Below, one piece after another: positions 7,201 to 62,379 of a DNA stretch of 64,000 nucleotides. The notes under the pieces were generated by a model. That model searched no databases. It saw only the letters and a list, made by a program, of their open reading frames with translations, and was not told where the DNA came from. The stretch lies in the NCBI GenBank assembly GCA_026770705.1, contig JANJGN010000026.1, positions 36,270,001 to 36,334,000 on the forward strand, read 5' to 3'. The position numbers and the translations under genes were made by a program. How positions within the stretch are numbered: position 1 is the stretch's first letter; each line of letters opens with the position of its first letter. Source of the DNA: Isurus oxyrinchus (taxonomy: Eukaryota).

Positions 7201-7420
7201 GAGACGGGGAGAGGGAGAGCACTTCAAAAGGAACTAACTTGTGTTAGTGATATTAAAAAGATTCAACATGGTGTGTCTTTAACACAAAACTAATTTATTT
7301 GACTTTTCGCCAGATTAGACCCTGTAAGTGGGCTGTAGTTTATTAACATCAGCGGAAACAGGCCCCAATGAACATGATTCAGTCCTAGATGTGATGAACA
7401 GCAAAATCCCATCACTGTCG

Positions 7421-12924: not shown

Positions 12925-13093
12925 AGTGCGGGTGTCTTTGTGTCTCTCCAGGTTGAATGATCAGTTGAAACCTTGTCCAGACACAGACCATGTGTATGGT
13001 TTCTCCTCGCTGTGACCGATGTGATGCTTTTTCAGGCTGTTCAGCTGGTTAAAGCTCTTTCCACAGTCAGTTCACTGAAACACTCTCACTCGG

Positions 13094-18920: not shown

Positions 18921-19011
18921 TTCAGCAGAAACAAACTCCAGCTGTCAAAATGAAAGAATTCAATCCTGAACAGGATTAACAGCAACAGTAACCAGATTTC
19001 AATCCCCATAG

Positions 19012-19797: not shown

Positions 19798-20149
19798 GTT
19801 GGGTGGTTAGTTCAAATCTCATCCACACAATTTGTCCTCGATGTGAATGGTGCAATGCTTTTTCAGGCTGTGCAATTGGTAAAACATTTCTCCTTCTATA
19901 TTAAAGATTCAATGATATCCAGCTCCAGATGTATTGAGTGAATCTGTCAGATTGTGACGTGATGTTTTCTTTGAGTTTCCTGTCAGCAAATCTTCCTGTT
20001 CAAGTATCCTGTAAAAGGAGTTTACTGAAGTCAGTAAGGGATAGAAATTCAGAACAGACAATTCCAGTTTCTTTCCTTTTTCTAATTTGTTCATGTGATG
20101 TGGGTGTCACTGGCAAGACCAGTATTTGATGCCCAGCTGGAATTGGGCA

Positions 20150-33690: not shown

Positions 33691-35796
33691 CTGTTGGAAT
33701 TCTACAGAGAGACAATTAGCTTCCATAATTATTTACAGTTACCCGAACAAATAGATTCAGCAATTATTTTTCATGTTATTTTTGGGAGGTAGTAGAATGT
33801 TGGGAGACACTTGGGAGACGATTATCGAGTCTTGATGCCTCATGCAACCCAATGTAGTTTTGAATGTAACTTGTTAGTGCTTGCGCAGATCTAAAATATG
33901 CTTAGTTATGTGGAATGTTCATTTATGGGAGACACTGAAAGAAACATTGTTAGCTATTAGGCCGAAGCCAGCATAGCTCAGTGACGTGAGACCACGTAAG
34001 AATCAGAATGACAGTGACAGTCAAATTGCAAGTTATACCACACAATGGAAGTTATATCCACACAATGCAAGTTATGCCAGCAGCAGCCAAGGAATATCCA
34101 CACAACACAAAGCTTAATCTCACAACATCAACACGCATTTACACACGTTTAACATGTATTATAACATTTTAAAACATTTTAAATGTTACCAAGCGCCTTA
34201 CACGGGCACAATAAAATAAAATTGTGATTAAGTCACATAAAGAAATATTAGGATATTTTTGTATCAGTCCTAGGCTCCTTGATTCTGACGTTAGGCTCTT
34301 TTTCTGTGAATGTTTTAATGGATCCACATTATTTTACACTTCCTCTTTGATTATTACACTAGGCTCTGTCTCTGTTAGTATTCATCCTAATTATTGTTGT
34401 ATTCCCAAGTCCATATACTGTGCTTTAAGAGGATACAGCGATAAACAAGATCCAGAATGTGTTTACTACAACAACATTGCATTGAATTGATGGCAAGTAC
34501 TCCTCGAAAACTATTGTATCTGCATTACGTGTTGACTGTACGAAATCGTTGTTAGTAATTAAAAATAAGCAATTGATGTTGAGCCACCTGACTGAATCAA
34601 TGCATTAAAAAATGTCACTTTCTTCCGATCCATATTTTAACCACTAATCATCCCTCCTAAATACTAAACTTAGCCAAACAGCTCGAAACCCTTTAAGAAC
34701 TGTGGTTTTATCCCTCTTCCAAGGACCGGGTCAAAAGTTACACGATTTACAAGCCGGGCGTTTTAATGCTGGGCGGAGCCTAAAAATACGCCGTCACCTC
34801 CTGACCCCGGATCAAGGGAGAAAGAGCCAATCACCGTGCTGTTATCCTGCTGACAATATTTTGCCCTGAGCCATTGAAAACCGGATGCCAGGTTTCTGTG
34901 ACAGACAGTCGGCCCTGTATGTGAGTGTGTGATACAGCAGGCTGTGCATATCTGACGTGTTTGTAGGTAAAAAGGCTCGATTTATACGAAACATTATATA
35001 AACATTCGGTCTTAATGGACAAAATTGATCGTTTGTCCAGCCGCGAAGGACGATTTTCGCAGACTGCCGCCCGCACAACCTGTGCCACAGAAAGGGGCCT
35101 TCCCAGGCGCATTGAATTGTTGCAGCCGCTTCTTTCCACGCCCCATTCACCAAGGAAGCGAATCGAAAACCAACCTCCTGTTCTTTTTCTCTGCCCTTCC
35201 ACCTATAGAAACTGTTTATTTTGATCTACTCAGCCCAGGGCCACATGATTTTGAGCACCTCTATCAGATCTACCCTGAACCTTCCATTTTCCATGGACAA
35301 CAAACCCAGTTTCCCCAATCTATACAATTAACTGAAGTCCTGCATCCCTGGGACGATTCTGGTAAACTTCTCTGCGCCCTTTCTAAACCATTCACATCCC
35401 TCCTAAAGTGCGATGCCCGAAGTGGACATAATGCTCCAGTTGAGGGGTAATCAGTACTTTCCAGGGGAACAGTAGTATTCCTTTGCATTTGGACTCTATG
35501 CCACTGTTATGATGCCGATAATCCCGGATGTTTTAGCATTATTTCTCAGGCTGTTAGGCCACCTTCAACCATTTATGTCAAAATAGTGCACATCGCTTGT
35601 TCAAGAATGGATAATTGAAAGAATTTTTTTGGCAGGGGTATTGTCGGCGGCTCGAAGTATAAAAATATTAAAGGCTCTGCGGAGCCAGAAAGAATGTGCG
35701 AACTTGATGTCTTTAACGATTTTATTCTGTGCTACAAAATTATAAAGTCAATTGAAAATACATTCGTGGAGTGATTCCCTCCCCCCACTACCCTTC

Positions 35797-35892: not shown

Positions 35893-36216
35893 GAACTCTT
35901 TCCGTGCCTTCCATTACTGTGTCTATAATCCCACCATGTTCAGGTTTTTGTACAGCTCTCTCCGTGCTCTGTATCACTGTGTGTCTGTTATCCCACCATG
36001 TTCAGGATTTTGTGCAGATCTCTCCGTGCTCTGTATCACTGTGTGTCTGTAATCCAACCATGTTCAGGTTTTTGTACATCTCTCTCAGTGCTCTCTATCA
36101 CTGTGTGTCTGTAATCCCAGCATGTTAAGTTTTTGTACAGCGCCCTCCGGTTTCTGTATCACTGTGCATCATGCTGAGGTTTTTGTACAACTCTCTCCGT
36201 GCTCTATATCACTGTG
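35893..36216 (-). repeat. Tandem array of 23-spacer recombination signal sequences (5 near-consensus plus 1 decayed)
   Basis: Heptamers CACAGTG at 36210-16, 36160-66, 36099-105, 36037-43, 35975-81. Nonamers at 36178-86, 36128-36, 36067-75, 36005-13, 35943-51 (ACAAAAACC x3, ACAAAAACT, ACAAAATCC). All spacers are 23 nt. Confidence 0.95.
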
Positions 36217-36488
36217 CTGTGCGCCAACTCAGTTCACAGTGATAAACTGCGGAGTCGCTCAATTGTAATTTGGAGATCTTCAACTGGCTGATTTTCTCCC
36301 CCAGGCAGCATTTTCTTTATTCTCCTCTCCTGAAATGTGTCCCTAAAGCAGATATTCCAGAGCCTGTCCTGGGGACTGACGGTACCAGCGTACTGTGCAG
36401 AACCCTGAATATTCCATGTTTAAAGTAACGGTGTCACCGATGGCAGAGATTTCTAGAGGCGAAATCCGGGAAATTATGGAACTGGAAT
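36217..36488 (-). pseudogene. Leaderless supporting TCR-delta V (NAR-TCR cassette 1)
   Basis: Acceptor TTTTTATCCTCCAG, phase 1. DSSSIISRISPLEISAIGDTVTLNMEYSGFCTVRWYRQSPGQALEYLL*..[fs]..KISQLKISKLQLSDSAVYHCELSWRT, then a perfect 23-RSS. CDR1 Cys kept; first canonical Cys lost; stop and frameshift present. Confidence 0.9.
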
Positions 36489-39419
36489 CTGGAGGATAAA
36501 AAAATGAACACAGCCAATATTTGTCCAGGAGAATTTGTCAATCGCGTGAATAGCTCTGCTTTTTGCAGTAATTTTATTTGCTGGAAGCCTATTTGAACCT
36601 TGTTCACTGTTATGAAAATATGACCAAATGGGGAATTAGGTGATGTTTTATTTTACATCGCGAGTTCTTCCGATCAGGACTGCACTGTCTGAATTGGTGT
36701 TGGGGATAGATTCAATAGTAACTTTCAAACGGGTAATGGGTCTGTGCTAGAAATGTAAATACAAATATAGAGCAAGGAGAAAATTCATGGGCAGTGGGAA
36801 CAATTGTATTACACTTTTAAAGGGTCAGTGCCTACACGATGGGCCGAATGTCATCCTTCCGTGCTGGATAATTCTATGAATTATATTACATTCCGGTTTC
36901 TACTTTCCTTGGTGAGACACATAGCTGGGGGAGCATTTTATGATCAGTGAGTCAATCAATTTCCAAAAAAAACATGTTTGTTGCAGAGAAACACAGCTGT
37001 GTGGCATCACTGCGCACAGCAAGATCCAACACAAACTGACGGGATTCATCAGCACCGATCGGGCCAAACCGTGAGTGAGCATCTCTTGTGGTGAAAGGTC
37101 AATCATTTACTGCGGTTTAAAACGGCTCGGGAATTTCTATCTGCCATTTGTTCTATTTCTATATATTCTATCAATAGGGTCCACTTTTCTCCAGTTCAGC
37201 TTAATTTCGAACACATGCAATTAATTTCATTTTATTTCTTTAAGTTCACATTCCTTTTATTTCACGTTAATTTTGTGCTGCTTGTGCTTTTTGCAATCGT
37301 GGGAACTTGTCCCAAATTCTCACAGTTGTCGGTTGGGCTCAGTCTGTTCAGTTTCCGCAGCGATTTTAACTGTTACTCACTGGGAACTGCCTCTTCTGGC
37401 TCTCTGACAATTTCAATTCCTTCCGCCCATTGGTTGATTCTCTCCTGGGTTCACTGGGCGGAGTTCTCTCTCAATTTTACATTATAGAGGAAGAAGAATG
37501 CAAAAGAGGAATGGGCCATTCAGCCTTTGTATATAATCAATTCCAGCTTGACCTCACCAGTAACCTAACTGACCATTTCCATCCAGCTCCCTGTGTTGGT
37601 CTGTTCCGTTCTCCCTCCTGAAATTTCAAGTGTTCCAATAAATATATCAATAATATCTGCCCCGACCTCTCCCTGTGGCAGCAAGTTCCACATTCTAACC
37701 TGCCTTTGTTTAAATTCATTTGTCTTAAATGTTTTATTTGTTCTGTTAGTTACTGTCATATGTTGACAGCTATTGCTTTGCACCTCAGCCACAAATGAAC
37801 AATTTCTCCACCATAAAACAGTTCATGATTCAAAAGATTTCTATGGATTCTCCTCTTGGTTCTGTTTTCCAGAAAAAAGAGACCCAGCCTGTTCAATCTT
37901 CGCAAAGAGATGTGGATTGTTGCTGATTTCTTTTCTCAGCAGTGTAAAAAATCAAAGCAGAGAATCCAATCAATAGAAACAGGAGCCCCCATATCACCTT
38001 TCAAACCTGCTCAGCCATTCGGGAATATCCTGGCAGATTTATAACCTCAACGTCACATTCCCCCACTCTCCCCATATCCCTGATCTTTTAGTGTCCGCAA
38101 ACCTATCAAATATTGTCTTCAAAGCAAACAGATACTGAACATCCACAGCCCTCTGAGTTACAGAATACCACAGATTCACAACAATGGTTCTACTGAAGAT
38201 GCTTTTTTCCTTCTCAGTTCTAATGGATGACTCTTTACTCTGAAGCTGTGACCCCGAGTTCTATACTCCTCAGTCTGGGGAGACACCGACCCAGAATCTC
38301 CCCTGTCAAAACCCTTCAGTATATTGTATGTTTTCATGAGATCACCTCTCATTCTTCTAACTCTAGGAAATATAGACAGAGACGACTAAATCTCTTCCCA
38401 TTGGACAATCCCTTCATCTCAGGAATCAGTCTGATGAAACATTGTTACACTCCTTCCAATGCAGATTGATCTCTCTTCTGTAAGGAGAACAAAACTTTAC
38501 ACAGCATTCCGGACTGGAGTCCATTTCAATCCTTCCCTCCATAAACCTCGTCCAACAGCTTGGGGTCGGATTGTACTTTAAAAGGCGCCCAGAAATCATT
38601 CAATCCTTCCCTCCCGTTCGATTCCTTATTTCTTGCTGGTTCTCAATGAACATTCCCACAGTTTCCTTCTGTCCCTATTCTCCTTTATAAGATTAATGCA
38701 TTACCCTGACTCGCTCACTGCACTGTGCTGTTTCAATTCCCAGTAATCAGGGATACAGATAAATTATAGCAATCCCATCTCTCAAACATCTACATTCAAT
38801 ATAGAGAAGTGTCTGCAGATCCAAACTTTCACATTTCAGTCTGAGGGCGGAAAAGCAGGAAAGTGATTCGTTTTATGAAGACAATTGAAAGAAATGGCAG
38901 GCAGAATGTTACTAATTTCAGTCATTGATTGTCCAAAAATAAAAATCCACCTGGACCTACATCAGGGTCTTATTTCTGAAGTCCGTGGTGTCACTCTCCC
39001 GTTTTTCTCCCGGGTCAGGTACTGAACGAGCCGCTGCAGGTATCCGAACTGGCCGAATTTGTGTTGAGTTTATTCACCTGGTGCTTCATTCACATTGCGC
39101 GGCTTGGACTGCAATCTGCTACCCAGGAGACAGCTCTGTGACCCCGCTCCCGAGCTCTAAGGGACAGACAGAGTTCCCTCGGTCACAGTTAACACCGGGT
39201 GTGGAGTCCGGATTGTCAACAATCTGCGCTCATTAAAAGCGATTCAGCGTCTGAGGGTCCATGATGTTGATATTGTCCCCGATGTGCCCGTTAAACCAAT
39301 AATGGCCCAGAATCCATCAACTCCCACATCCCACCCAAACTCCACTGATATCAATAATAAACTGTCTGTGAACATTACCCGGGACAGTCTGTAACGCGGC
39401 GGGGTTTGGAGTCACTTAC

Positions 39420-39511
39420 CGGCTGTGACAGTCACCAACGTCCCGGATCCATCCACATATTTAATACATCACCACAGTGACACCGCTCTCAGTCTCCCCG
39501 GTACAACAACC
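39420..39511 (-). other. NAR-TCR J segment with 23-RSS (cassette 1)
   Basis: Nonamer 39503-11, 23-nt spacer, heptamer 39473-79. Coding 39420-39472 reads (*)CIKYVDGSGTLVTVTA. Donor GTAAGT, phase 1. Confidence 0.92.
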
Positions 39512-39826: not shown

Positions 39827-39899
39827 GGTATTTGCTCAGGTCTCTCCTATTGTGACTCCCTCACCCATCCATACAGTGTTACAAGTCAGTATAACGTCC
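39827..39899 (-). other. NAR-TCR D segment flanked by 12/12 RSS (cassette 1), signals degenerate
   Basis: Coding TGGATGGGTGAGGGAGT (39855-39871). 3' RSS CACAATA-12-GCAAATACC; 5' RSS TACAGTG-12-ATAACGTCC (critical first C mutated). Position matches cassette 2. Confidence 0.75.
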
Positions 39900-40239: not shown

Positions 40240-40717
40240 AGTTTTTGTATCGCGGGAAGCCGAGGCCCATCACTGTGTATCAATAGTATTGAGCTTTACA
40301 GTAATAGGTGGCGGTGTCTTCAACTCTCACATCCCGAATTTCCAGAGAAAATGTCTTTTCTACTTTATTCACCGACGCAACAATTCTCCCCGCGCTGTGG
40401 ATCGGGTCCCACAATGTCCCGGGTTTGTCTGAAGAAATGCCCATTTTTAAAATAATAATAATTATCATTGAAAACACAGGTGATGGTGAGAGACTGACAC
40501 TCCTTCCTGGTCACCGCTGCCGGGGTCTGTACCACTGACTGACTGAAAGAGCCTGGAAATTAAACAGAGAGAGTTTAATGGAGCATCAGAGCCGAACCAC
40601 AGAACTGGTTTAAAACCCCGGACAGTGTCTGTATTTGAGATGGATACGGACAGCTTTGTTTGATCTGCACTCACGGGGTAAACAGACACACAGAGTGAAA
40701 AGAAGGAGGATTCCCAT
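40240..40717 (-). pseudogene. NAR-TCR (IgNAR-like) V gene with split leader and RSS (cassette 1)
   Basis: Leader 40675-40717 MGILLLFTLCVCLP with GTGAGT donor. V exon 40278-40552: SFSQSVVQTPAAVTRKECQSLTITCVF..GHFFRQT[5-nt deletion vs cassette 2]GTLWDPIHSAGRIVASVNKVEKTFSLEIRDVRVEDTATYYCKAQYY*. Extra FR1 Cys, short CDR2 region. RSS CACAGTG-22-ACAAAAACT. Confidence 0.92.
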
Positions 40718-41592
40718 CTGCCTGGAGCTGAGGGTTTATATGACGGGGAGCTGGAGCCTGCAGCCTTGGACTGCACTGGGAGACCGGATCTCAGAGCTGG
40801 ACTGAAATACTTTAGGGGAATCGAGTTAATTTGCACAGGGCAGTTTCGCTGAGATTATTGATGGGCCGCATGGTTCCCGGATAGCTGGCTAAGTGTTGTG
40901 GAAATAAGAGACAGTTTTATAAAAGGAAACTGCAACTTTCTGACCTTTCGTTTGGATAGTGATCCGAATGTGAAAGCCCCTCCCACAATACTCTGGTGTA
41001 CAGGGTTGGGGGAGGGGAGCTTTACTTTCTGCCAGTTGTGCTGCCGCCTTCCTTGCCCCACAGTGGTGAACTGGGAGGTCGGTGCATGTCTTTGTATTGG
41101 GTGGTGTTTGTTAAAGGTGGAATGTGGGCCCAGGACACCGGGAGAAACCCCCCGACCCACTCTTACTCCAACATTCCGGAGATTCTCCCTGTCATTTAGC
41201 CAAATGCATCCTGCACCAGTCCTGCGATGGGTTACATGTAAAATGGCGTTTAATTTCAGCCATGTTTGACTTCCAGATTGGGAAAATTCAGAATTTCTGT
41301 TAGCAGTAAGTGAGATGGAAACGGCACTCGGGAGGACAACAGACCTTGGGGGGCTTTCTTCTTGGGGCTCTCTTTAAAGATGACAGTCACAACATTCTGT
41401 TCTGAAAACTGTTTCTGGTGTATGATTATCTCTCAACCAGCAACAGCAATACTCAATCAAATAAACCCCGTGACAAGGCCGAGGTCAGAGGCTTCACGAA
41501 GCTGACACCGGAGTTCGGGAAAAAGCTGCTCAACGTTGCGGGCAGGTACGGAAATGCCATTAAAAGGCGAAACGGAAATTAAGAACTGCAGC

Positions 41593-41888
41593 ACGTCACA
41601 CAAACATGGCCGACAGGACGTCACAAAAACATGATCAACAGTAAGTCACACAAACATGGCCGACTGTACGTCACAAAAACATGATCGACAGTTTCGTCAC
41701 GCAAAGATGATCTACCGTATGTCACACAAACCTGGCAGACAGCTTTTTCACACCAACATGGCCGACAGTACAACACAAACATGGCCGACAGTACGTCACA
41801 CCAACATGGCCGACAGTACGTCACACCAACATGGCCGACAGTACGTCACGCAAACATGGCCGATAGTACGTCACACAAACATGGCCGA
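41593..41888. repeat. 25-bp minisatellite, about 12 copies
   Basis: Consensus ACGTCACACAAACATGGCCGACAGT. Confidence 0.92.
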
Positions 41889-41989
41889 TGACTTGAGATG
41901 CAATGTGTAAAGTTACAATTTTTTCTGCACGTCCGGCCAACTCCTGTCAGCTTTCTCAACGTGATAAAAATGCTGCTTTGAGAAAAATA

Positions 41990-44269: not shown

Positions 44270-46850
44270 CAACGATGAGTATAAGGGACATCAAATGTTA
44301 GTGCGGGTTGTATATAGACCCGAAACTGTGGTGGTGATGTTGGGACTGGAATTAAACAGGAAATTAGAGACGTATCCAATAAAGAAACATCTGTAATTAT
44401 GGGTGACTTTAATCTGCATATAGATTGGGCAAATCAAATACCGTAGAAGAAGAATTCTTGGAGTGTATACAGGATGGCTTTCTGGACCAATGCATTGAGA
44501 AACGAACTAGAGAACAGGCTATTATTGACTGGGTATTGTGTAATGAGAAAGGAATAATTGGCAATCTAGATGTGCCAGGCCCCTTGGCGATGAGCGGCCA
44601 TAATATGATAGAATTCTTCATCAATATGGAGAGTGACGGAGTTGATTCTGAGACTGGTGTCCTGAACCTTAATACAGGAAACTACGATGGTGTGAGGCGT
44701 GCGTTGGCGATGATGGATTGGGAAACGTTACTTAAAGGGATGACGGAGGTTAAGCAATGGCAAACATACAAAGAGCGCATGGGTGAACTGAAACAATTGT
44801 TATTCCTGCCTGGTGCAAAAGTGAAACAACAAACGTGGCCAAACCATGGCTTATGAGAGAAATTAGAGATAGTATTAGATGCAAGGAAGAGGCATACAAA
44901 TTGGCCAGGAAAAAAATAAAGCAGACCTGTGCATTGGAAGCAGATTAGAATCCAACAAAGGAGGACCAAGGTATTGATTAAGAAGGAGAAAATAGAGTAC
45001 CAGAATAAGATTGCAGGGAACGTAAAACCTGACTGTAAAAGTTTCTATACGTATGTGAAGAGAAAAAGGTTAGTGAAGACAAATGTAGGTCCCTTACAGT
45101 CAGAAACGGGAGAATTTAAAATGGGGAGCAAAGAAATGGCTGACCAAGTAAGTACATACTTTGGTTCAGTCTTCACAAAGAGGACACAAATAACATACTA
45201 GAAATGTTGGGAAACACAGGGTTTAGAGAGATGGAGGAACTGAAAGAAATCTGTATTAGTAGGGAAATGGTGTTGGGGAAATTGATGGGATTGAAGGCCG
45301 ATAAATCCCCAGGGCCTGATAATCTACATCCCAGAGCACTTAAGGAAATGACCCTAGAAATAGTGTATGCATTGGTGGTCATCATCCTAGATCCTATACA
45401 CTCTGGTACAGTTCCTGCAGATTGGAGAGTAGCTAATGTAACCCCACTATTTAAAAAGAGAGGTACAGAGAAAACAGGGAATAAAAGGCCAGTCAGCCTG
45501 ACGTCGCTAGTGGGGAAAATTCTAGAGCCCATTATAAAAGCTTTAATAGCTGAGCACTTGGAAAACATTGGCAGAATCGGACAGTCAGCACGCATTTACG
45601 TCAAATCTATTGCAATTCTTCGAGGATGTCACTAGTGGAGTGGATGCGTTTTAGTTGGACTTTCAGAAGACTATCGACAAAGTCCCACAGCAGAGATTAG
45701 CATGTAAAATTAAAACGTATGAGATTGGGGATAGTGTGTTGAGATGGATAGAAAACTGGTTGGCAGACATGAAACAAAGAGGAGGAATACACGGGACATT
45801 TTCCGAATGGCAGGCAGTGACAAGCCTTAGGGATCGGTGCTGCGTCCCCAGCTATTAACAATAGATATTAATGATTTAAATTAGGGAACTAAATGTAATA
45901 CCTCTAAATTTGCAGATGACACAAAGCTGGGTGGGAGGGTGAGTTGTGAGGAGGATGCAGAGAAGCTTCAGTGTGATTTGGACAGGCTGAGTGAGTGGGA
46001 AAATGCATGGCAGCTGAAGCATAATGTGGATAAATTTGAGGTTATCCATTTGGATGCAAAAACAGGAAGGCAGATTATTATCTGAATTGCTATAAATTGA
46101 GAGAGGGGAATGTGCAATGAGACCTGGGTGTCGTCGTACACCAATTGCAGAAGGTAAGCATGCAGATGCAGCAGGCGCAAAAGAAGGCAAATGGTACGTT
46201 GACCTTCATAGCAGAGGATTCCAGTACAGGAGCAGGATGTCTTGCTGCAATTGTACAGGGCTTTGGTGAGACCACAACTAGAATATTATGGCCAGGTTTA
46301 GGCTCCTTATCTGAGGAAGGATGTTCTTGCTATAGAGGGGGTGCAGCGACCATTTATCAGACTGATTCCTGGGCTGGCGGGACAGACATATGAGGAGTGA
46401 TTGTATCGGTTACGATTATATTCGCTGGGGTTCAGAAGAATGAGAGCAGAATCTCATAGAAGACTATAAAATTCTAATAGGGCCATTCAGTGTAGATGCA
46501 GGAAGGATGGTCTCGATAGCGGGGGAGTCCAGAACCAGAGGTCACAGTCTGTGGATACAGGGTAGACCATTTAGAATTGAGATGAGAAGAAATGTCTTCA
46601 CCCAGAGAGTGGTGAGCGTGTGGAATTCGCTACCACCAAAAGTATTTGATGCAGAAATATCGCATAATTTCAAGAAGTAGTTAGATATAGCTCTTGGGGC
46701 GAAAGGGATCAAAGGGTATGGGCAGAAAGCGGGAGCAGGCTATTGAGTTGGATGATCAGCCACAATCATGATGAATGGCGGAGCAGGCTCGAAGGGCCTA
46801 TGGCCTACGCCTGCTCCTACTTTCTATGTTTCTATGTTTTTATGTTTTCT
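44270..46850 (+). mobile_element. CR1 LINE ORF2, 5'-truncated, degenerate
   Basis: KSPGPDNLHPRALKE..VPADWRVANVTPLFKK..RPVSLTS; SKFADDTKL; TTTCTATG repeat tail at ~46820. Confidence 0.92.
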
Positions 46851-47649: not shown

Positions 47650-47993
47650 NNNNNNNNNNNNNNNNNNNNNNNNNNNNNNNNNNNNNNNNNNNNNNNNNNN
47701 NNNNNNNNNNNNNNNNNNNNNNNNNNNNNNNNNNNNNNNNNNNNNNNNNNNNNNNNNNNNNNNNNNNNNNNNNNNNNNNNNNNNNNNNNNNNNNNNNNNN
47801 NNNNNNNNNNNNNNNNNNNNNNNNNNNNNNNNNNNNNNNNNNNNNNNNNNNNNNNNNNNNNNNNNNNNNNNNNNNNNNNNNNNNNNNNNNNNNNNNNNNN
47901 NNNNNNNNNNNNNNNNNNNNNNNNNNNNNNNNNNNNNNNNNNNNNNNNNNNNNNNNNNNNNNNNNNNNNNNNNNNNNNNNNNNNNNNNNNNNN
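47650..47993. other. Assembly gap (344 N) abutting the second RSS array
   Basis: Run of N. Confidence 1.
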
Positions 47994-48180
47994 TGTTTCA
48001 CTGTATCTGGAATCCCCACTTTGTTCAAGTTTTTATAGAGCTCTCTCTGCGCTTTGTATCTCTGTGTGTCTGTAATCTCACCATGTTTAGCTTTTTGTAC
48101 AGCTCTCTCCGTGCTCTGTATCACTATGTGTCTGTAATCCCACCATGTTCAGGTTTTTGAACAGCTCTCTCCGTGATCTA
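47994..48180 (-). repeat. Second tandem 23-RSS array (at least 3-4 decayed units, runs into the gap)
   Basis: Heptamer remnants 47999-48005, 48060-66, 48122-28; nonamer remnants 48028-36, 48090-98, 48152-60. Spacers 23 nt; same linker TGTCTGTAATCCCACCATGTTCA as array 1. Confidence 0.9.
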
Positions 48181-48267
48181 ACCCTGAACATTCACAGCTT
48201 CAAGTAATGGTGTCACCGACAGCAGATGTTTGTAGAAGCGGGCACTAAGACACCAGGGAACTGGAAT
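48178..48267 (-). pseudogene. Supporting TCR-delta V of cassette 2, FR1 stump only
   Basis: Acceptor TTCTCCAG; DSSSLVS*CPLLQTSAVGDTIT*SCECSGL fused directly into an RSS spacer. Confidence 0.85.
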
Positions 48268-49671
48268 CTGGAGAATTAAAAAGAACATTATTTGTTTGTT
48301 TAGCCATTGTTTACCTGGGAGAATTTGTCAATGACATGAAAGGTTCGTTTTTCTAAACTTCAAGCAAGCCTGTTCCATCCGTATTCACCGTCATTGAAAT
48401 GTGATTAAGTGCAGAGATGATAATTTTCTTTTGTATCGAGAATTTTTCCAATCTGCACTGCGTGGTCAGAATGGGTGGTGCGAACGTACTCAGTGGGAAC
48501 TTTCAAATGGCTGATGTATCTGTACTGCAACAGGAAAAATGTACAGCCTCATGAGGAAATACATGCGTTTTGGTAAAAGTTAGATTGCACTTTGAAAGTG
48601 ATAGCATCTCCACGATGGGCCGAATGTCATTCTACCTCTCGGCGTGGTTCTCTGTTGTATATTACATTTCTGCTTCTATTTTCCTTGGTGAGTGACACCC
48701 CGATGGAACAGTTTCCAAAAAATGATTGTATGGGACAATCAGCATCAGCATCACTGTGCGCAGCATGATCGAAATGAAAGTGTTTGTGATTAATCAGCAT
48801 TGATTGAAACTTCTCTCTTCCCCGTTCTAATGGCCGACCCCTTATGCTGAAACTTTGGCTCCCATTTATAGACTTTCCAACCTGAGGAAACTCCCACCTA
48901 GAACCTTCCCTCTCAAGCTCCTTAAGGATATCATGTGTTCTCATGAGATCGCCCTCATTGCTGTAAATTCCAGGAAACACAGGCCCAGTCTACTCAATCC
49001 CTTCCCATAGGACAATCCCTTTACTTCAGGAATCAGTCTGATGAACATTTGTTCCAAAGCATGTACAACCTTCCCTAAGTAAGATACCAGACTTTACACA
49101 GCATTCCAAACTGGAGTCCTTCTCTCCATAAACGTCGCCCACCACCCTGTGCTCGGATTGTACTTTGAACGGCCCAGACATCAACCAATCCTTCTCTCCC
49201 ATTCGATGAATTATTTCTTGCTGGTTCTAAATGAATATTCTCTCAGTTTATAATTTTTTCCTTATGTCCCTGTTCTCCTTTATAAGATTAATGCATCATC
49301 CTCACTCTCTCACTGCACTTTGCGTTTTTAATTCACAGTAATCAGGGATACAGATAAATTACAGCAATCCCATCTCTCAAACATCGACATTCAATATAGA
49401 GAAGTGTTTGCAGTTCCAAACTTTCACATTTCGATCTGAGGATGGAAAAGGAGGAAATGATTGGGTATATGAAGACAATTGAAAGAAATGGCGGGTAAAT
49501 GACCCGACTGTCCGATCATACCCGGTTCCTAAATTGAAGCCTGCAACGGAAAAGGTCCCTTAGAAATCGTTTTTTTTTTAGCTTCGATGTGATTGAAACG
49601 ATGTTGATCACAAAATGACTGTGAACATTATCCGGCACAGTCTGCAACATGCGGGCTTCAGAGTCACTTAT

Positions 49672-49749
49672 CGGCTGTGACAGTCACCGCCATCCTGGAT
49701 CCATCTACATAATTAGCACACCACTCTCAATCTCCCAGGTACAAGAACC
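49672..49749 (-). pseudogene. NAR-TCR J of cassette 2 (heptamer deleted, donor mutated)
   Basis: NYVDGSRMAVTVTA. Donor ATAAGT instead of GTAAGT. Nonamer 49741-49 and 23-nt spacer are present but the heptamer is missing. Confidence 0.88.
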
Positions 49750-50056
49750 ATCGACAACTCAACCTGCCAGGAAATCATCATCGGGCAGTAGACACCTCAC
49801 AATTATACAGCAGGTTTAAATGAATAATCAATATTCAATGTTTCAAAGTCTCTATCTGTTCAAACTGTTCTTTCTGAGACCCTGAGCTCTGAGTAAATGG
49901 TCCCAGGAATGAGATATTCGCTTCATATAAACCGGGAAAAATATCAAAGAAAGATTACTGAATGGTGAAAATTAAAATGAAATGTAACCAGATTGCAACG
50001 ATATTAACATCAACCCGACAATTCACTATCCGGGCCCGGAGAATTAATATTTACAA

Positions 50057-50115
50057 AGTATTTGCCCTACTCTCTCCCACTGTGACTGCCCGTGTAACAA
50101 GTTAGTATAAAATAC
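50057..50115 (-). pseudogene. NAR-TCR D of cassette 2 (5' heptamer and part of the coding end deleted)
   Basis: 3' RSS CACAGTG-12-GCAAATACT intact (50057-50084). Only 7 nt of coding sequence plus GTG of the 5' heptamer remain before the 12-nt spacer. Confidence 0.75.
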
Positions 50116-50247
50116 CCACGGGTACTAGGTGAGATGTGGGGACATTAAACAGCGGGGACTGCAGTTCCCGGTTCCAGCTGTTAGAACAGGATCACATCTG
50201 GTGTTAGGGGTTTGTAACTGGGATCAGTTATTCCTAATCCCCATTCA

Positions 50248-52757
50248 AAAATGAGAAAATAAATTACTGAGTTAGAGACGTATGCAATAAGGGTACAACT
50301 GTAATCATGGGTGACTTTAATCTACATATTGATTGGGCAACCAAACTAGCAATAATACTGTGGAGGACGATTCCTGGAGTCTGTACGTGATGGTTGTTTA
50401 GGCCAATACGTTGAGGAGCCAACTGGAGAGCAGGTTATCCGAGACTGGGTATTGTGCAATGAGAAAGGATTAATTAACAACCTTGTTGTGCAGGGTCCCT
50501 GGGGGAAGAGCTACAATAACATGATAGAATTGTTCCTTAAGGTGGAGAGTGAAGGAGTTGAATCCGAAACTAGTGTCCTGGATCTAAATAAAGGGAACTG
50601 CAAGGTTATGAGGGGAGAGTTGGCAATGATGGATTAGGGAACCTTACGAAAAGAGCTGACAATGGATCGGCAATGGTTAATATTTAAGGAACGTATACAA
50701 CAATTATTCATTCCCGTCTGGCGCAAACATAGTATGGGAAAGATGGTTCAACCATGGATTACAAAAGAAATTAGGGATAGTATTAGATCCAACGAGTAGA
50801 CATAAAAAATTTCCAGAAAAAGCTTCAATCCTGAGAGTTGGAAGCAGTTTAGAATTCAGCAAAACGGGAAAAAAAGACTGATCAAGAAGGGGAAAATGTA
50901 GTACGAGAGTAAACTTGCAGGGAACATAAAAACTGATTGCAAAAGCTTCCATAAATATGCGAAGAGAAAATGATTAGTAAACTAACACTCACAAACGGGG
51001 GAAACTATAGTTGGGAACAAAGAAATGGCATAAAAATTAAAGAGATATTTTGGTTCTGCCTTCACAAAAGGCAACACAAGTAATTTCCCAGAAATGTTAG
51101 GGAACCAGTGAGAGCGAGGAATTGAAGGAAATTAGCATTAGTGAAAAAAATTGTGCTGGACAAATTAATGGCGTTAAAATCTGAAAAATCCCCAGGGCCT
51201 GATAATCCACATCCCAGATTTCTAAAGGAGGTGACGCTGGAAATATTGGATGCATAGGTGGTCACCTTCCAAAATTCTATAGACTCTGGAACAGTTCCTA
51301 CATATTGGGGAGTGGCAAATGTAACCCCATTATTTTAAAAAAGGAGGGAGAGCAAAAACAGATAATACAGAGCAGTTAGCCTAACATCAGTTATGGGGAA
51401 AATGCTAGAGTCTGTTATAAAAGACATGCTAACTGAACACTTGGAAAGCATCAATGGGATTAAACAAAGTCAGCATTGGTTTATGAAAGGGAAATCATGC
51501 TTAACTAATCTACTCGAGTTTTTTGAGGATGTAACTAGTAGAATAGATAAGGGAGAACCACTAAATGTGGTGTATTTGGATTTCAAGAAGGTTTTAATAA
51601 GGTCCCACGTAAGAGTCTAGTGGACAAAAGTAAAGCACATGGGATTGGAGGTAATATACTGGCTTGTATTGAGAATTGGTTGACAGACCAGAAACAGGCA
51701 GTGGGAATAATGGGTCTTTTTTCCAGGTGGCAGGCCGTGACTAGTGGTGTCCCGCAGAGATCAGTGCTTGAGCCCCAGTTATTCACAACATATATAGATA
51801 ATTTGGATGAGGAAACCAAATGCAATATTTCCAAGTTTGCTGACGACACAAAACTGGACGGGGCTGTGAGATGTGAGGAGCATGCAAGAGGGATTCAGGG
51901 CAATTGAGACAAGTTGTCTGTGTGTGTCGGCAATCACATGGCAAATGCAGTATAACGTGGATAAATATAAAGTTACGCTTTGGTGTGAAAAACAGAAAGT
52001 CAGAGCATTATATAAATGGTGATAAATTGGGAAATATGGGTGTAGGAAGGAGTTTGGGTGTCGTTGTACACCAGCCAATGAAACTAAACAGGCAAATTAG
52101 GAAGGAAAATGGTATGTTGGCCTTCATTTAAAGTGGATTTGATTTCAGAAGTAGGGATGTTTTACTGTAGTTGCAAAGGGCCTTGGTGAGAACACACCAG
52201 GAGCATTGCGTGCAGATTTGGTCTCTCTACGCAAGAAAAGATATATTTGCCGTAGAGGGAGAGCAGCGAATGTTCACGAGGCTGATACTGGGCGTAGCAG
52301 CACTGTCGTATGAGGAGAGATTGGTTCAACTGGGCCTGCATTCACTAGAGTTTAGAAGAATGAGAGGGGATCTGATTGAAACACATATAATTCTAACAGC
52401 GCTAGACAGACTAGATGCAGGAAGGATGTTTTCCCTGGTTGGGGAGTCCAGAACCAGGGGCCACCGTTTCAGAATACGTGGAAGGCCATTTAGGACCGAA
52501 ATGAGGAAAATTCCTTCACTCAGAGGGTGGTCAACCTATAGAATTCTCGACCAAAGACGGCTATGGAGTCACTGAGTATATTCAAGAAAAAAATCGACAC
52601 ATTTTTGGATATTAGTGGCATCAAGTGGTATGGACAGAAAGCGGGAATATGGTGTTTAGATCGAGGATCAACCATGATAATATTGAATGGCGGAACAAGA
52701 TCGAAGGGCCGAACGGCCTACTCCGGCTCCTATTTCTATGTTTCTATGTTCCTCTGT
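50248..52757 (+). mobile_element. CR1 LINE inserted between V and D of cassette 2
   Basis: RT motifs (KSCLTNLLEFFEDVT, GVPQRSVLEP, SKFADDTKL) and TTTCTATG tail. The flanks are contiguous in cassette 1 (~40030). Confidence 0.92.
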
Positions 52758-52987
52758 TTCACCAACACCAACCCCGGGGAAGCCTTCACCATCTACTTGG
52801 TAGTTTTAAAACTGAAGATGTTAACGGCAATAATCCAATCGCACTATAAACTAGACTGGGGGCCGGGGGGTGGGGGGGGGGGCGGGGGCGGGGGGGGAGG
52901 GGGCAGACGGTGTGAGGCGGAACTGTAGGCGTTTAACAGCAGATTAACTCCGCTTTTTTACCTGTTTTTATGATAATCTGCAGTGAG

Positions 52988-53491
52988 AATTTTTGTATTC
53001 CGGGAAGCCGAGGCCAGTCGCTGTGTAACGTAGTACTGAGATTTACAGTAATAGGTGGTAGTGCCTTCAACTCTCACATCCCAAATTTCCAACGAAAATG
53101 TCTTTTCTGTTTTATTCATTATTCATTCAATGTCCCCCTGCTGGAGATCCGCTCCCGCTCTGCCCCGGTCTGGGTTTGTCTGATGAAAAGCCCCGTTTGG
53201 AAAATATCCCAATAACCAGCATGGAAAACACAGGTGATGGTGAGAGACTGACACTGCTTCCTGGTCACCACTGCTGGGGTTTGTGCCACTGGCTGACTGA
53301 AATCTCCTGGAAATTAAACAGAGATAGTTTCATGGACCATCAGAGCCGAATCACAGAACCGGGTCAAACCCCCTGTCTGTAATTGGGATGGACCCGGGCA
53401 GCTTTATATGACATCCACATAATGTCGGTTTGTGTGATCGGTACTCACGGGGTAAACAGACACACAGAGTGAAAACAAAGTGGATTCCCAT
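52988..53491 (-). pseudogene. NAR-TCR V gene with leader and RSS (cassette 2)
   Basis: Leader 53449-53491 MGIHFVFTLCVCLP. V exon 53026-53306: DFSQPVAQTPAVVTRKQCQSLTITCVFHAGYWDIFQTGLFIRQTQTGAERERISSRG[fs]MNKTEKTFSLEIWDVRVEGTTTYYCKSQYYV. RSS CACAGCG-22-ACAAAAATT. Confidence 0.92.
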
Positions 53492-55704
53492 CGTTCTGCT
53501 GCCTGGAGCTGGGGGTTTATATGACTGGGAGTTCTAGACTGCAGCCCTGGACTGCACTGGGAGGCCGGACCTCAGAGCTGGACTGAAAGATTTTAGGCAC
53601 GAAAATTAGGCCACGCCTGCCATTTAATTAAATCAAGGGTTCAAAGGGGGCGGAGCTGTTGCACTCAGTCTGTTGCTGCTTCGGAACTCACGACCCCCGA
53701 ATCCGGCCTCGTAACCCCACTGGGTGTCGCGTGACACGCAGTTTGGGATGCCCTGCTTAATGTGGGCTAATGCTGATTTGCAGAGGGCAGTGTCCGCGAG
53801 ATCAGTGGTGGGCCGCACGGATACACGGTCTCTGGTTGTGTGTTGTGTGAATAACTCTCAGGCTGAATGAGGGAAGCTTACAGCTATCTCTTGCTTCATT
53901 GGAGCTGGATGTTAAATCCCCTTCACATTTCTCTGTTGAACAGGGCGGTGTGAGATGGGTGTGGTTCTGTCAGTAGGTGCTGCTGCCCTCCTTCCCCCTG
54001 TAGTAAGGAGCTGGGAGGTGGTTCCATGTGTATTTACTGTGTGGTCTTATTTCCACTCATTGCAATACTGCAGGGAATTCATTAACACCCTGAAGAGGTT
54101 GACGGGATCTGGGTTAAATGCCTGACCTCAGTCCAGCAGCTGATGATCAGCTTGCAATATGATACAGCCCATTGACAACATCCAGGAAGATATATACAAC
54201 ATACGCGAAAAACAACACCCCTCTCTCATTTAAACAAACGCTTCCCTTCTCTGTTTTGCATTTAAAATGATGATTCAATTCAGTGAGGATTGATTTCCAG
54301 TTCTGTAATATTCAGACTTATCATTAACAGTGACAGAGTCTGCGAGTAAAGAATCCAGGACATGACAGAGTTCATGGGAAAGGGACTGTGCAATATTACA
54401 GGCAGACCTAGACATGTCAATAACGGAAAAAACGGGGAATTCCCGATAGCGTCTGGCCGCACAAAAAAGGCTGACTGTGCGGCGCACAAGCAAGGCAGAC
54501 GGGAAGTCACACAGAACTAGTCGATATTCGATATTCTTATTGACATTCCAGCAAACAGGGCGTCCGCAATGTCCAAATATTTACCCAAATACGTGACTCT
54601 CATCATAGTGCCCGTTGTTTACCATTTTGTGCTAATATCCACCAGGTTCGTTATAAATTGGTTACTGTTTTATCTCTGGGCAAAACAACTGCTTATCTCA
54701 AATTTTAAATACCCGTTTTCCTGCCGAGCGATTTACAGATCAGCATGGAACTTACCAGAGAAGTCATAGCTTTAGGCATTTGCGCAGAAACTAAATCGTG
54801 AGATTAAACTTGCAATGAAGTTTGAGCCTCTGTTCGTGTTTCAACAGGTCCGGATTATAATTGTACTAATCCTGCCCTTGATTGTGGCACGAGACTCTGC
54901 CTCTGTTAGTGTGTTGCCTGGTCTTGATTATTATTTTCTGCCATTTGTCGTTGATAGATAGACATCGGTGTGACTCTGATAATATTTGGCTAGACCCTGT
55001 TTATTATTTCATTAGTCCCTGTCTCCTCGATTACCACATTACTTTCTGCCTGTGGTTATGTTTCTACAGACCCTCACTATTATTTCATTAGTCTCTGGCT
55101 CCTTGATTATTACAGTATGCTCTGTCTCATTTACTGTTTCACCAGGGCCTGATTATGATTGTTCTAGTCCACTACTTCTTGATTATAAAATGGCCATCTA
55201 TCCAAGTAATCATTGCACAAAATTCTATCTCTGGCTGTATAACAATTGACCCTGTCTCAATTGTTATTGCACTCGATCTTGTCTCTGTTTATATGACAGG
55301 AGTCCCTTTCTATGTCTATGTCGATGTCTATGCGGTTGTTTCCATTACGCTAGACCTTTTTTAAGTTAGTACTACTCCTCTAGACAATGTCATTGTTCAT
55401 CTTTGTTACAGTGTATATTACAACATATCATATCCCTGTTTATACTACACTCAATCCTGCGTCTGCCAACATTAAGCTAGACCATGTCATTATTTAGATT
55501 GCACCGGTTATTAAGTTATTACTGCATTGGGTGACGCATATATATCACATTGACCCTGTCTCATTTACTGCTGCATTCTTCTAAGCCATGTCCAGTAATG
55601 ACTTGCCGAGATCACACCATTCATAGTATTATATTAGACTCCCTCTCGGTTGTCATTGCAGGAGGTCTTGTCTATAATCCTATAAGACATCAAGTGTAAT
55701 ATTC

Positions 55705-58259: not shown

Positions 58260-61200
58260 ACAAATGTATTTGATGAAATGGGATTTTTCCCCATATTATA
58301 TTCCATTTGCCAGATCTTTGCCCACTCACTTAACCTCCATAAGCCTCCATAAGTCTTCTTTGCCACTTACGTTCTTACCGACATCTGAGTCATCAGCAAA
58401 TTTGGCAACCATCCCTTCAATCGCTTCATCCAAGTCATTCATATAAATTATAAACTGTTGAGGTCCCAGCAATGATCCCTGTGGCACACCATTCGTTACG
58501 TGCTGCCGACATGAAAAAGATCCATTTATGTTTACTCTTTGCTTCCTGTTAGACAGACAATCTTCTATCCATGCCAAAATGTTACCCGCTACACCATGAG
58601 CTTTCATTTTCTGCGATAACCTTTGATGCAGCACTTTTTCAAATATCTTCTGGAAATCTAAGTACAGCATATCCACCAGTCCCTCTTGATCCACAGCCCA
58701 CGTCACTTCCTCAAATAATTCCAATAAATTGGCTAAGCACGATTTCCCTTTCACAAAACCATGTTGAATCTGCCTGATGAACTTAAGTTTATCCAAGAGC
58801 TCTGCTATAACTTCTTTAATAATAGTTTCTGACATTTTCCCGACGACAAATGTTAAGCTATTGGCCTGTGGTACCTTGCTTTCTGTCTCCCTCCCTTTTT
58901 GAATAATGGAGTTACATTTGCTATCTTGCAATCGAATGGGACTTTCGCAGAATTTTGCGAGTTTGGAAAACTTCAACCAATGCATCAATTATCTCACTAG
59001 GCACTTCTTTCAATACCCCAGGATGAAGTCCATCAGGACCCGGGCTCCTGTCAGCGCACAGCTCCAAGAATTTACTCAGTACCACTTTTCTTGTGACTGT
59101 AATGTTCTTGACTTCCTTGGCCACTTCCATTTCCTGGTTTATAGCTGCTTCTGCGATGTTACTTTTATCTTCTGTAGTGAAAACTAATGCAAAACACTAG
59201 TTTAATTCATCTGCCTTCTCCGTGATTTCCTTTATCAATTCTCCAGAGTCACTTTCTATGGGACCAACGCTCACTTTGTTAACTCTTCTCTCTTTTAAAT
59301 ATTTATAAAACATGTTTTATACACTTTTTATAATAATTTTAAACACTGCTTTTATATTTCTGGCTAGCTTTCCCTCATACTCTAATTTTCTCCTCCTTAG
59401 TAATATTTTAGTCATTCCTTGCTGTTTCTTGCATTTTGTCCAATCTTCTGGTCTCCCACCTATCTTGGCACAATTCTATGTTTTTTTTCTTTGAGTTTGA
59501 TGCTATATTTAACCTTTCTAGTTAACCATGGATGGTGTGTCCGTCTCCTGGGATTTTTCCTACTCGTTTGAATGTATCTATTCTGTGCATTCTGAAATGC
59601 CCACTTAAATATTAGCCGTTGCATCTCTATTGACCTATTGCTTAACCTAATTTGCCAATTCACTTTAGCTAGCTCAGCTTTCATGACTTCGTAATTGACC
59701 TTATTTTAAGTTTATAAACTTCATCTCAGGTCCACTCCTCTCTCCCTCAACCCGCCTGTACAATTCAGTTATATTTTGGTGGCTGCTACCTAGGGGTATC
59801 TTCACTATGAAGTCATTAATTACTCCCATTTTATTACTCATTACCAGTCCTAGTATAGCCTTCTATCGGATTGGCTCCAGAACATGCTCCTTTAAGAAAC
59901 AATCCGAAAACATGCAATGTGCTCCTCAGCGAGCCAATCTTTGCCCATTTGACTTTTCCCATCTATATATAAATTAAAACCTCCCATGATTATCGGCGTG
60001 CCTTTCTGTCAATCTCCAAATATTTATGTCATTATGGTCAACTCTACCAAGTGGTTACTGTTAGGGGTCCTGTGCACAACTCCCAGAACTTCCTTAGTGC
60101 CTTCACCATTTCTCATCTATACCCAAACCGTTTCCACACCCTGGATTCCTGAACTTAAGTCCTCATTATTTATTGTGCTAATACCATCATTAATGAACAG
60201 AGTGAGCACTCCACCTTTTCCACGCTTCCCGTCCTTCCTAAAAACCATGTACCCTTCAATATTCAGGTCCCAATCTATGTCTTCCTGCAGCCATGTCTCT
60301 ATGATGGGTATTAAATTGTAATTATTTATGTCTATGTGCGCTCTCAGTTCATTTGTTTTATTTCGAATGCTACGTGCATTCATATACAGAACTTTTTTGT
60401 TTTATCCTTTTATTCTTCCTATAGCCTCTCGCTTCATCTGCTGATTTACTGTGAGATTTGTAGTGTCTATCCCTTCCTATTTTTCATTTCCCATAATAAT
60501 ACCTTTCTCCTTTGTCTTGTCTCTGCTCCTTGACTTATCACCTTTTCCCAAATTTGATCCCTTGCTCCCACTATTTAAGTGAAACCACTTTATACTTCCC
60601 TTGTTATGCGGCTCACAAGAGCACTGGCCCCAGTAGTGTAGATCATTCCAACGGTGCAGATACCACTTTCCCCAGTACTGATGACAGTGCCCCATGAACC
60701 GAAACCCACTTATCCCACATCAGTCTGTGAACCGTGCACTCATCTCCCACATATGATTTGTCCTATGCCAATTTGCACGTGACTTAGGTAATAATCCAGA
60801 GTTTATGATCTTTGAGGTTCTGCTTCTTAAATTGGTGTCTACGTCCTCATGCTGACCATGCAGAAACTCCTTCTTTGTCCAGCCTATGTCGTTGATACCT
60901 ACATGGACCACGACGACTAGGCCATCCCCCTCCCGCTGCAAGTCCCTCTCCAGGCCTGAGCATATGTCCCGCACCCTCGCACTGGGCAGGCAACAGAGCC
61001 ACCTGGACTCACGTACGTTTCTGCAAAAAACGGTGTCAACTCCTCTTACTATACTATCCCATACTACCACTACATTCCTCCCACTTGAATGGCTTCCTGT
61101 ACCATGGTGCCATGGCCAGTTAGCTCATCTACCCTTCAGCCTCCACTCTCATCCAAACAAGCTGAAAAATCCTCAAACCTGTTGGACAATTGAAAGGGAC

Positions 61201-61560
61201 GAGGCTCCTGCACTCCTGCCTTATGAGCCTCCTTACTTCCTCACTCACAGTCACACTGTCCTGCCTCTGACCACTGACCAAATCAGATGAGCCTGTCCTA
61301 AAAGGTGTGTCTGCCTCCTGGTACAAAGAATCCCTCGCTGATGTGCTGCAGTGTCTGTAGTTCGGCCTCCAGCTCACAAGCTCGAAGCTGATGCTATTCA
61401 AATTTCAAATACTTATTGCAGACGTGTTTGCCCTGGATCATACTGGCATCAAGGAGCTCCCACATGCTGCAGCTGTGCCACATCTCCTTTCCTGGCATTC
61501 TTAATGTGTTCTAATTAACTATTAAATTATTTCACACAATTACATAATTTGTTTTTCTTT
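58260..61560 (-). mobile_element. CR1 LINE, ORF1 esterase plus ORF2 APE/RT, degenerate
   Basis: DSIVRG..CCLPSARVRD..VHVGIND (ORF1); NARSIRNK..ETWL (APE); GVPQGSLLGP..KFADD (RT). Confidence 0.92.
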
Positions 61561-62379
61561 TTATATATTTGATCAACCTTACCACCAGTTGCTAGACTAT
61601 TTTGAAATTTAGGAAATTTAGAAACCTTAGTCACTTGCCAGATACTCACCAAGTAACTAGCTTCTTCTCCTGTGGTAGAGTACAACCACCTTCTGAAGGC
61701 AGAGATTGGTCGAAAGCAGAAAGTAAAAGAGCAAAGCTTTCCCTTCTTCCCCTAACTCCCTCAATTACCCAACTCCCAGCACCCTATTCTACGTTGCAAT
61801 TCTTGCAGTACAGCACCTTCAACAGTTGAATTCCCACTTAAACCAAATTCTCAAATAAACTCACTCAGCCTCTGTCTCACTCAGGCCGAAATCTCCACTC
61901 ATTGATTTCTGAAGTTACTATGGCAGCATTTTGTTAAGTACAAGCAAGTGTAAGTAACTGGGTTGTTCTTTCAGAGGCCCAGAGGCCCATTCAAGTGGGA
62001 GGAATGTAGTGGTAGTATGGGATAGTATAGTCAGAGGAGTTGACACCGTTTTTTGCAGAAACGTACGTGAATCCAGGTGGCTCTGTTGCCTGCCCAGTGC
62101 TAGGGTACATGAGACATTTTGTTAAGAACAAGTAACTGTAAGTAGCTGGGTTGCTTTCTCAGAGGCCCAGAATACATGCTGCGTCCATTAGGTCTGCACC
62201 TTTGCTTTATGGTTATAAACAGCGCTATTCGCAACTACAGGCCACACGACCAGTTTTTCTCGGTGGATAAAGAGCTTTTTGAGAAATGGTGCAGCAAATG
62301 TATGCAGCGGTCGATTCTTTATTGCTTCCTTATCACTGAAAACCACCCATTTCCTCATCGTTGCTTGGGATGAAGGTCT

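Follow-up and report, generated by a model that had tools for sequence, protein, structure and literature searches.

The window, by which we mean the whole 64-kb stretch of Isurus oxyrinchus DNA that was analysed, contains two paralogous antigen-receptor cassettes (cassette 1 and cassette 2; Table 1), and all antigen-receptor segments in it lie on the minus strand. The cassettes are ~81% identical over 2,852 aligned columns. Cassette 1 consists, in order, of a leader, a NAR-type V, a 22-spacer signal, a D flanked by 12-signals, a 23-signal, a J, a supporting V-delta and five tandem 23-signals; cassette 2 repeats this segment order from 53491 to 47994, except that a decayed LINE-type element separates its V from its D. 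The leader exons of both NAR V segments are 43 nt long.

Table 1 Antigen-receptor segments, signals and deletion sites in the two cassettes, with the retroelement inside cassette 2
Feature	Position	Strand	Description
Cassette 1 NAR-TCR V	40240..40717	-	leader 40675-40717; exon ~40278-40552, frameshifted; 22-spacer RSS 40240-40277
Cassette 1 D with both 12-RSS, comparison copy	39827..39899	-	D itself 39855-39871
Cassette 1 J with 23-RSS, comparison copy	39420..39511	-	J 39420-39472; 23-RSS 39473-39511
Cassette 1 supporting TCR-delta V	36217..36490 (approximate)	-	stop and frameshift
Cassette 1 array of five 23-RSS	35943..36216	-	periods 50, 61, 62 and 62 nt; first linker 12 nt short
Cassette 2 NAR-TCR V	52988..53491	-	leader 53449-53491; exon ~53026-53306, frameshifted; 22-spacer RSS 52988-53025, heptamer in place
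Decayed LINE-type retroelement between cassette 2 NAR V and D	50272..52759 (approximate)	+	RVT_1 matches, E 3e-6 and 7e-5, below Pfam cut-off
Cassette 2 D 5' 12-RSS remnant	50092..50115	-	CAC of heptamer, 12-nt spacer, nonamer 50107-50115
Cassette 2 D remnant	50085..50091	-	7 nt, against 17 nt in cassette 1
Cassette 2 D 3' 12-RSS, intact	50057..50084	-	consensus heptamer 50078-50084; normal partner of the J signal
Cassette 2 J 23-RSS remnant, heptamer gone	49725..49749	-	16 spacer bases and nonamer 49741-49749
Lone 7-mer GTGGTGT at J deletion	49718..49724	-	two similar 7-mers in cassette 1, one on each side of the heptamer and spaced by 14 nt
Cassette 2 J coding segment	49672..49724	-	53 nt, as in cassette 1, if the 7-mer 49718-49724 is the J start; donor mutated at 49671
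Cassette 2 supporting TCR-delta V, 5' remnant	48180..48269	-	
Junction of the deletion of at least 195 nt	48179..48181	-	supporting V CDR1 joined to RSS spacer; cassette 1/cassette 2 alignment
Cassette 2 tandem array of 23-RSS units	47994..48179	-	runs into N gap 47650-47993; at least three units

Protein matches and diagnostic residues support the NAR-TCR identity that the earlier note had given these cassettes. VNAR structures rank among the top PDB matches of the cassette 1 NAR V, a fragment of which matches 25 proteins at 57-78% identity; 24 of the 25 are named shark gene models, most with two V domains. NAR-TCR, the doubly rearranging TCR-delta of cartilaginous fish, is characterized by a leader-bearing NAR-type V with an a-b loop Cys and without the Trp of WYRK, followed by D, J and a supporting V-delta with a Cys in CDR1 (PMC1845163). 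The segment order and these residues are found here: the loop Cys is present in both cassettes (RKECQSL and RKQCQSL), the Trp is absent from both (GHFFRQT and GLFIRQT), and the CDR1 Cys is present in the supporting V-delta of cassette 1 (YSGFCTV), the cassette 2 deletion beginning just before that residue. In tblastn, the two-V paralog P0010 matches NAR V, J and supporting V in that order, and in cassette 1 a V-D-J set carrying 23/12-12/23 signals precedes a second V-delta that bears an RSS. Paralog models splice J directly to the supporting V, upstream of which a leader-like exon lies on the opposite strand. No constant exon or third cassette was found in the 64-kb window by tblastn with all 25 proteins, and two exact-match scans for cassette motifs returned 0 loci in metagenome contigs.

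Frameshifts and stops interrupt the V exons of both cassettes, and the J splice donor of cassette 2 is also mutated; the base of an intact donor at 49671 is present in other copies in the read/contig comparison. Judging from their sequences, these are pseudogene members of the NAR-TCR family only, neither expressed nor rearranging. They differ from known NAR-TCR in that both copies are pseudogenes and that cassette 2 is without the J and D 5' heptamers and most of the supporting V. The parts of the NAR-TCR account consulted (PMC1845163) mention neither tandem 23-RSS arrays nor a leader-like exon in inverted orientation, and a literature search, outside which most primary NAR-TCR papers lay, found no RSS arrays or inverted leaders at NAR-TCR. 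The leader-like exon is 73 nt long with a GTGAG donor and lies on the plus strand ~350 nt upstream of each supporting V (36839-36911 and 48615-48687). It is open and hydrophobic in cassette 2 (GRAVY 1.13), has one stop in cassette 1 and is gap-free between the copies, which are 77% identical there and 69% in the V-side intron; the supporting V may have lost its leader through a small inversion.

Alignment of the cassettes confirms that cassette 2 has a 14-nt gap at the J signal and another at the 5' signal of D. The gap at J floats between 7-nt direct near-repeats, with eight placements tying at 13 mismatches and losses of 0 to 9 coding and 5 to 7 heptamer bases. The intact spacer and lost coding end of the earlier description are only one of the eight placements, and the paralogs favour a full-length J. 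In cassette 1 the spacer ends with GCGGTGT and J starts with GTGATGT, and the single GTGGTGT of cassette 2 matches each at 6/7; measured on the longer copy, microhomology is 0 exact and 5/7, and the repeat match becomes 6/7 only if the ancestral first J codon was Trp, as in cassette 2 and 5/5 informative paralogs. The earlier note had seen a GTGGTG microhomology near this deletion; the 7-nt near-repeat would explain the product.

Read-through of the J signal in frame occurs in 5 of 26 paralog junctions, all five of which have six residues, from W, before DGSG. J length is conserved, because the same six-residue spacing is found in cassette 1 (*CIKYV, with a stop at the Trp position) and cassette 2 (WCANYV) as well as in these five informative paralogs. 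A shorter ancestral J, which had been raised as a caveat, is rejected on this conserved length. We favour the simplest reading, in which cassette 2 would have kept the whole J and lost the heptamer with 7 spacer bases, no extra substitution being needed. The alternative, in which the spacer is intact and the coding end lost, may also apply and needs one CpG transition; such transitions are common, with TG in cassette 2 at 10 of 69 cassette 1 CpGs. The best-supported placement has one breakpoint at most 1 nt from the cleavage point.

At D and its 5' signal, cassette 2 is 14 nt shorter than cassette 1, with the 12-nt spacer and nonamer in place, as previously described. Three placements of the gap tie, removing 4+10, 3+11 or 2+12 heptamer and coding bases, so that the loss of CACA and ~10 coding nucleotides in the earlier note is one of three; the cassette 1 heptamer reads TACAGTG on the plus strand, not CACAGTG. 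With one more mismatch, 1+13 or 0+14 are also allowed, the latter a purely coding-side loss. Microhomology at this gap is at most 1 nt. Within ~115 nt around D, cassette 2 is without 8, 14 and 4 nt, and only the 14 touches the cleavage point. Judged against cassette 1, the sole intact D that could be read, a shorter ancestral D seems unlikely, because it would need a 3-nt D and three heptamer substitutions.

The third deletion, which the earlier note had placed near ~48178 and described as removing a V/heptamer border, is real and measures at least 195 nt. It extends from CDR1 of the supporting V through the first heptamer and removes, with the heptamer itself, 184-185 coding bases of V and 3-4 of the spacer; microhomology is at most 1 nt.

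To tell whether these gaps are germline or somatic we aligned 4 of 21 listed runs to cassette 2 at 80% likeness (best share in the run search 0.53 for organism A and 0.05 for organism B); the read/contig comparison covers 24 of about 1,500 pieces. Organism B contig X7-15 spans 49898-50147 with one inserted and one deleted base and 10.8% substitutions, and this contig therefore lacks both the 14 nt of D and the unrelated 8 nt nearby; control contigs that carry the 8 nt show gaps of 8. Because it is common to two species, the D deletion is inherited, not somatic, which bears out the germline presence that had been proposed. The J gap is probably also common to organism B: contig X9-21 aligns over 49409-49923 with 12 bases inserted and 2 deleted, too few for a 14-nt insertion, and another contig, ending before the J gap, already has 11 inserted and 2 deleted bases. 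For the V deletion the evidence is suggestive: contigs X7-10 and X9-17 run unclipped for 5 and 6 bases beyond the junction, a stretch in which cassette 1, with its intact V, differs at 6/6 positions but which is shorter than the 31-base bridging rule asks. Each bridge is a single contig.

That the deletions stem from somatic events in lymphocytes, or from misassembly of the reference, is scarcely credible. None of the organism A pieces listed (24 of about 1,500) bridges the gaps, and an N gap adjoins the array; against this stand the bridging of the D gap by a contig at 10.8% divergence, which nearly refutes an artefact there, and the flanks of cassette 2, which are collinear and diverged like those of an old paralog (16% substitutions from cassette 1). 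From D to J the depth is ~50 reads per bin, compared with 6 for the lowest bin, and up to 23 contigs carry a variant at one place; our rough guess is a family of tens of cassettes, read depth being no copy number. Contigs of both organism B runs contain a joint 48125->50164, from an array heptamer to DNA upstream of D, with an unreliable short side of 22-29 nt; either a germline deletion or a 12/23 signal joint could account for it. The joints 49713->49800, 49713->49832 and 50051->50123 were rejected as further deletions, starting as they do at alignment breaks, with intervening sequence not known. Among the genome-derived protein models, P0004 and P0025 have D-length extra residues between the V end and a heptamer-like read-through, and P0007 has a repeated in-frame CDR3; all three might derive from NAR-TCR segments joined in the germline. 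RefSeq models also contain in-frame stretches resembling CDR3, which we do not take as proof of germline joining, at least 5 of 26 being read-through of the J signal.

A further loss lies in the cassette 1 array, whose first linker is 11 nt long versus 22-23 nt in the other three. The missing 12 nt (36166-36177) end exactly at the intact heptamer at 36166, without microhomology; this is the textbook shape of an open-and-shut or signal-end join and a cleaner candidate for a RAG-like event than the three gaps of cassette 2. Of the six linkers in the window one shows such a loss, which sustains the RAG reading; three raw organism A reads have a similar short array unit. Joints that step back by the length of an array unit also occur in raw reads and contigs of organisms A and B, and a CACAGT match in the flanking sequence beyond the last unit could give slippage a starting point. 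The extra array signals might serve as decoys or for repeated rearrangement. An isolated degenerate 23-RSS with 3 mismatches lies ~1 kb beyond the cassette 1 array (34891-34929, minus strand), with no V-like frame beside it.

The aligned blocks contain 46 gaps in the 2,852 columns, 28 missing from cassette 2 (16 of them at least 4 nt) and 18 from cassette 1, all unpolarised, and ordinary gaps of 4-26 nt are common in cassette 2. At the 24 gaps of at least 4 nt, exact microhomology never exceeds 3 nt when scored on the longer copy. We placed the observed gaps at random and counted distinct gaps spanning the five functional borders of cassette 2, leaving out the 49-nt array-unit difference. Three of the five borders are hit, with P from 0.003 (cassette 2 gaps) to 0.011 (gaps of both cassettes); with a 3-nt slack, used because breakpoints float, P is 0.022-0.064. 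For the two short border-spanning deletions the values are 0.012-0.035 and, with slack, 0.062-0.155, and three short hits among all 17 heptamer borders of both cassettes, arrays included, have P 0.010-0.045. From 0.012-0.035 per cassette, two short hits would occur somewhere among 50 equally decayed cassettes with probability 0.45-0.83. Border placement is only nominally enriched, in a pattern chosen post hoc from one cassette pair in a family of tens of copies.

Cleavage by RAG falls precisely on the heptamer-coding bond and yields signal ends that are blunt and coding ends that are hairpins (PMC2193825), and open-and-shut joints rejoin the same two ends (PMC2213516). Such joints may lose signal bases, signal-end loss that blocks later use is an acknowledged outcome, and chromosomal cleavage is coupled to 12/23 pairing (PMC2193590). 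Among 48 RSS-end insertions from mouse thymocytes, which are non-standard joints, 26 had RSS ends shortened by 1-12 nt (PMC2118463). Germline RAG activity is documented in sharks, where germline joints are trimmed, may contain P bases and reflect little TdT activity (PMC2193156), and one germline hybrid-joint inversion is described in horned shark IgH (PMC2193153).

Measured by this yardstick, the best placements at D, J and V all cover or touch the heptamer-coding bond, with collinear flanks. The D gap, with 2-4 signal and 10-12 coding bases trimmed, appears to fit an open-and-shut joint. The J gap seems to fit poorly or ambiguously, the heptamer being gone and up to 14 signal-side bases lost where a 7-nt near-repeat suffices; microhomology repair of a RAG break there would look the same as a RAG-free repeat deletion. 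The V gap, with ~185 coding bases lost, also seems to fit poorly. The earlier note had suggested looking for N or P bases at the breakpoints; no P bases were found at the J, D or V junction and none are needed. At J the coding end may be intact; at D and V, where it is lost, none are expected. Their absence is compatible with RAG, P bases being optional. Nor was any D-J coding joint found among the joints listed (15 of 20, from four runs), a weak argument that germline RAG activity on the NAR-TCR family is rare.

The cassette 2 deletions resemble three known kinds of change, each incompletely. Like germline-joined shark Ig (nurse shark NS4 and horned shark IgH), they are an inherited change at RSS borders in an antigen-receptor cluster, but in those genes the segments are joined, the RSS cleanly excised and P bases possible (PMC2193156, PMC2193153). 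In cassette 2 the V, D and J lie apart, with the D-J intervening sequence present and collinear (this is not a germline-joined gene), and the signals are damaged in place. Like open-and-shut joints, bases are lost across the heptamer-coding bond without rearrangement; such joints are described in lymphocytes and substrates, whereas here the J loss is mostly or wholly signal-side and repeat-flanked and the V loss largely coding. A literature search that covered few of the primary NAR-TCR papers found no report of germline open-and-shut scars. Slippage or MMEJ makes microhomology-mediated deletions in pseudogenes, and the J gap, which removes one of two 7-nt near-repeats and the heptamer between them, is like these; the D and V gaps, nearly free of microhomology, are not.

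The central claim of the earlier note, one paired 12/23 cleavage at D 5' and J with both ends resealed without rearrangement and fixed together, fares badly, and we consider it very improbable. The spacers are indeed 12 and 23, chromosomal cutting is coupled to such pairing (PMC2193590), and both gaps appear older than the split from organism B; that shared age is not specific, however, since the unrelated 8-nt gap is also common to organism B. The two signals obey 12/23 but face the same way, both 5' of their segments, and are not normal partners, so their joining would be inversional and would pass over the consensus heptamer of D 3', which lies at a distance of 17 nt. The normal partners are both unscarred: the D 3' heptamer of cassette 2 is consensus, and the NAR V keeps its heptamer in a near-consensus signal, with a 1-nt gap ~5 nt inside V, although precise resealing at these partners would leave no trace. 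The equal 14-nt sizes have no mechanistic basis, and the missing P bases, the repeat that explains J and the commonness of ordinary gaps also weigh against a paired event. That one or more junctions are instead separate germ-cell RAG cuts, rejoined in place with base loss by open-and-shut joining or microhomology repair, is unlikely but better founded, D 5' and the cassette 1 array linker being the best candidates. It would account for the nominal border enrichment, for the trimming of D without microhomology and for a linker loss that stops exactly at an intact heptamer; the 1-12 nt lost from signal ends in mouse thymocytes offer a precedent (PMC2118463), and, with little TdT in shark germline joints (PMC2193156), missing N bases are no objection. 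It requires, on the other side, 14 nt off the signal end at J, beyond the 12 of PMC2118463, or a CpG change, and at V the loss of ~185 coding bases, and it leaves no P bases. Coding joints are expected to be commoner than open-and-shut joints, so the failure to see a D-J joint among those listed also counts against it.

RAG-initiated scars of either kind are possible, if rather doubtful, and no diagnostic sign favours them. Were germ-cell RAG cuts resealed in place as fixed open-and-shut scars at D 5', J, the supporting V and the cassette 1 linker, which we also regard as a minority prospect, germline RAG would not only pre-join cassettes but also kill and remodel them, and would have contributed to building the tandem RSS arrays. 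The deletions would then be fossils of abortive RAG cleavage in germ cells at a TCR locus, adding gene-killing to the known germline joints of shark Ig clusters, and deletions at heptamer bonds, counted over tens of cassettes, would be a genomic signature of how often RAG acts in shark germ cells. A reading without RAG-type junctions would have ordinary deletions favoured by selection, stopping RAG from cutting a cassette unable to make a receptor. It would explain the border enrichment, and three signals are destroyed in one dead cassette, but cassette 2 keeps its consensus D 3' heptamer and near-consensus V signal, cassette 1 is also dead and yet retains its V, J and five array signals, and in a family of many copies little would be gained per cassette; we find it quite improbable.

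We conclude, with a probability of about 0.64, that the three signal-removing deletions of cassette 2 are ordinary germline mutations accumulated during pseudogene decay, and not RAG scars; the odds are a judgement from the tests above and from a low rate of open-and-shut relative to coding joints. Ordinary decay is favoured because gaps are frequent, J is repeat-flanked, the normal partners are unscarred, and neither P bases nor a listed D-J joint were found. Cassette 2 is a broken NAR-TCR V-D-J/supporting-V cassette, inactivated in many places, whose J deletion likely arose by slippage or microhomology repair between the two 7-base repeats flanking the heptamer. The deletions would have arisen independently, without RAG, and drifted to fixation, and their landing on cleavage points would be a low-probability coincidence picked post hoc from tens of cassettes. 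Against decay stand the three of five borders hit in the strict test, the three short hits among all 17 borders, the germline RAG activity documented in sharks, the D and V gaps with next to no microhomology, the cassette 1 array loss ending exactly at an intact heptamer and the best J placement with its breakpoint near the cleavage point. As ordinary decay, cassette 2 is another NAR-TCR pseudo-cassette, of little wider import.

Several other elements lie in the window. A second decayed LINE-type copy (44364-46847), 70% identical to the one inside cassette 2, is situated between the cassettes. Near the cassettes are three 84-nt tandem arrays (7408-8378, 12009-13040 and 18999-19802), which have the period of C2H2 zinc-finger repeats. 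The window also contains a 25-nt minisatellite (41539-41913), a degenerate 27/76-nt repeat tract (54874-55657) and a 131-nt inverted repeat of 94% identity with an 894-nt loop (60962-62117).
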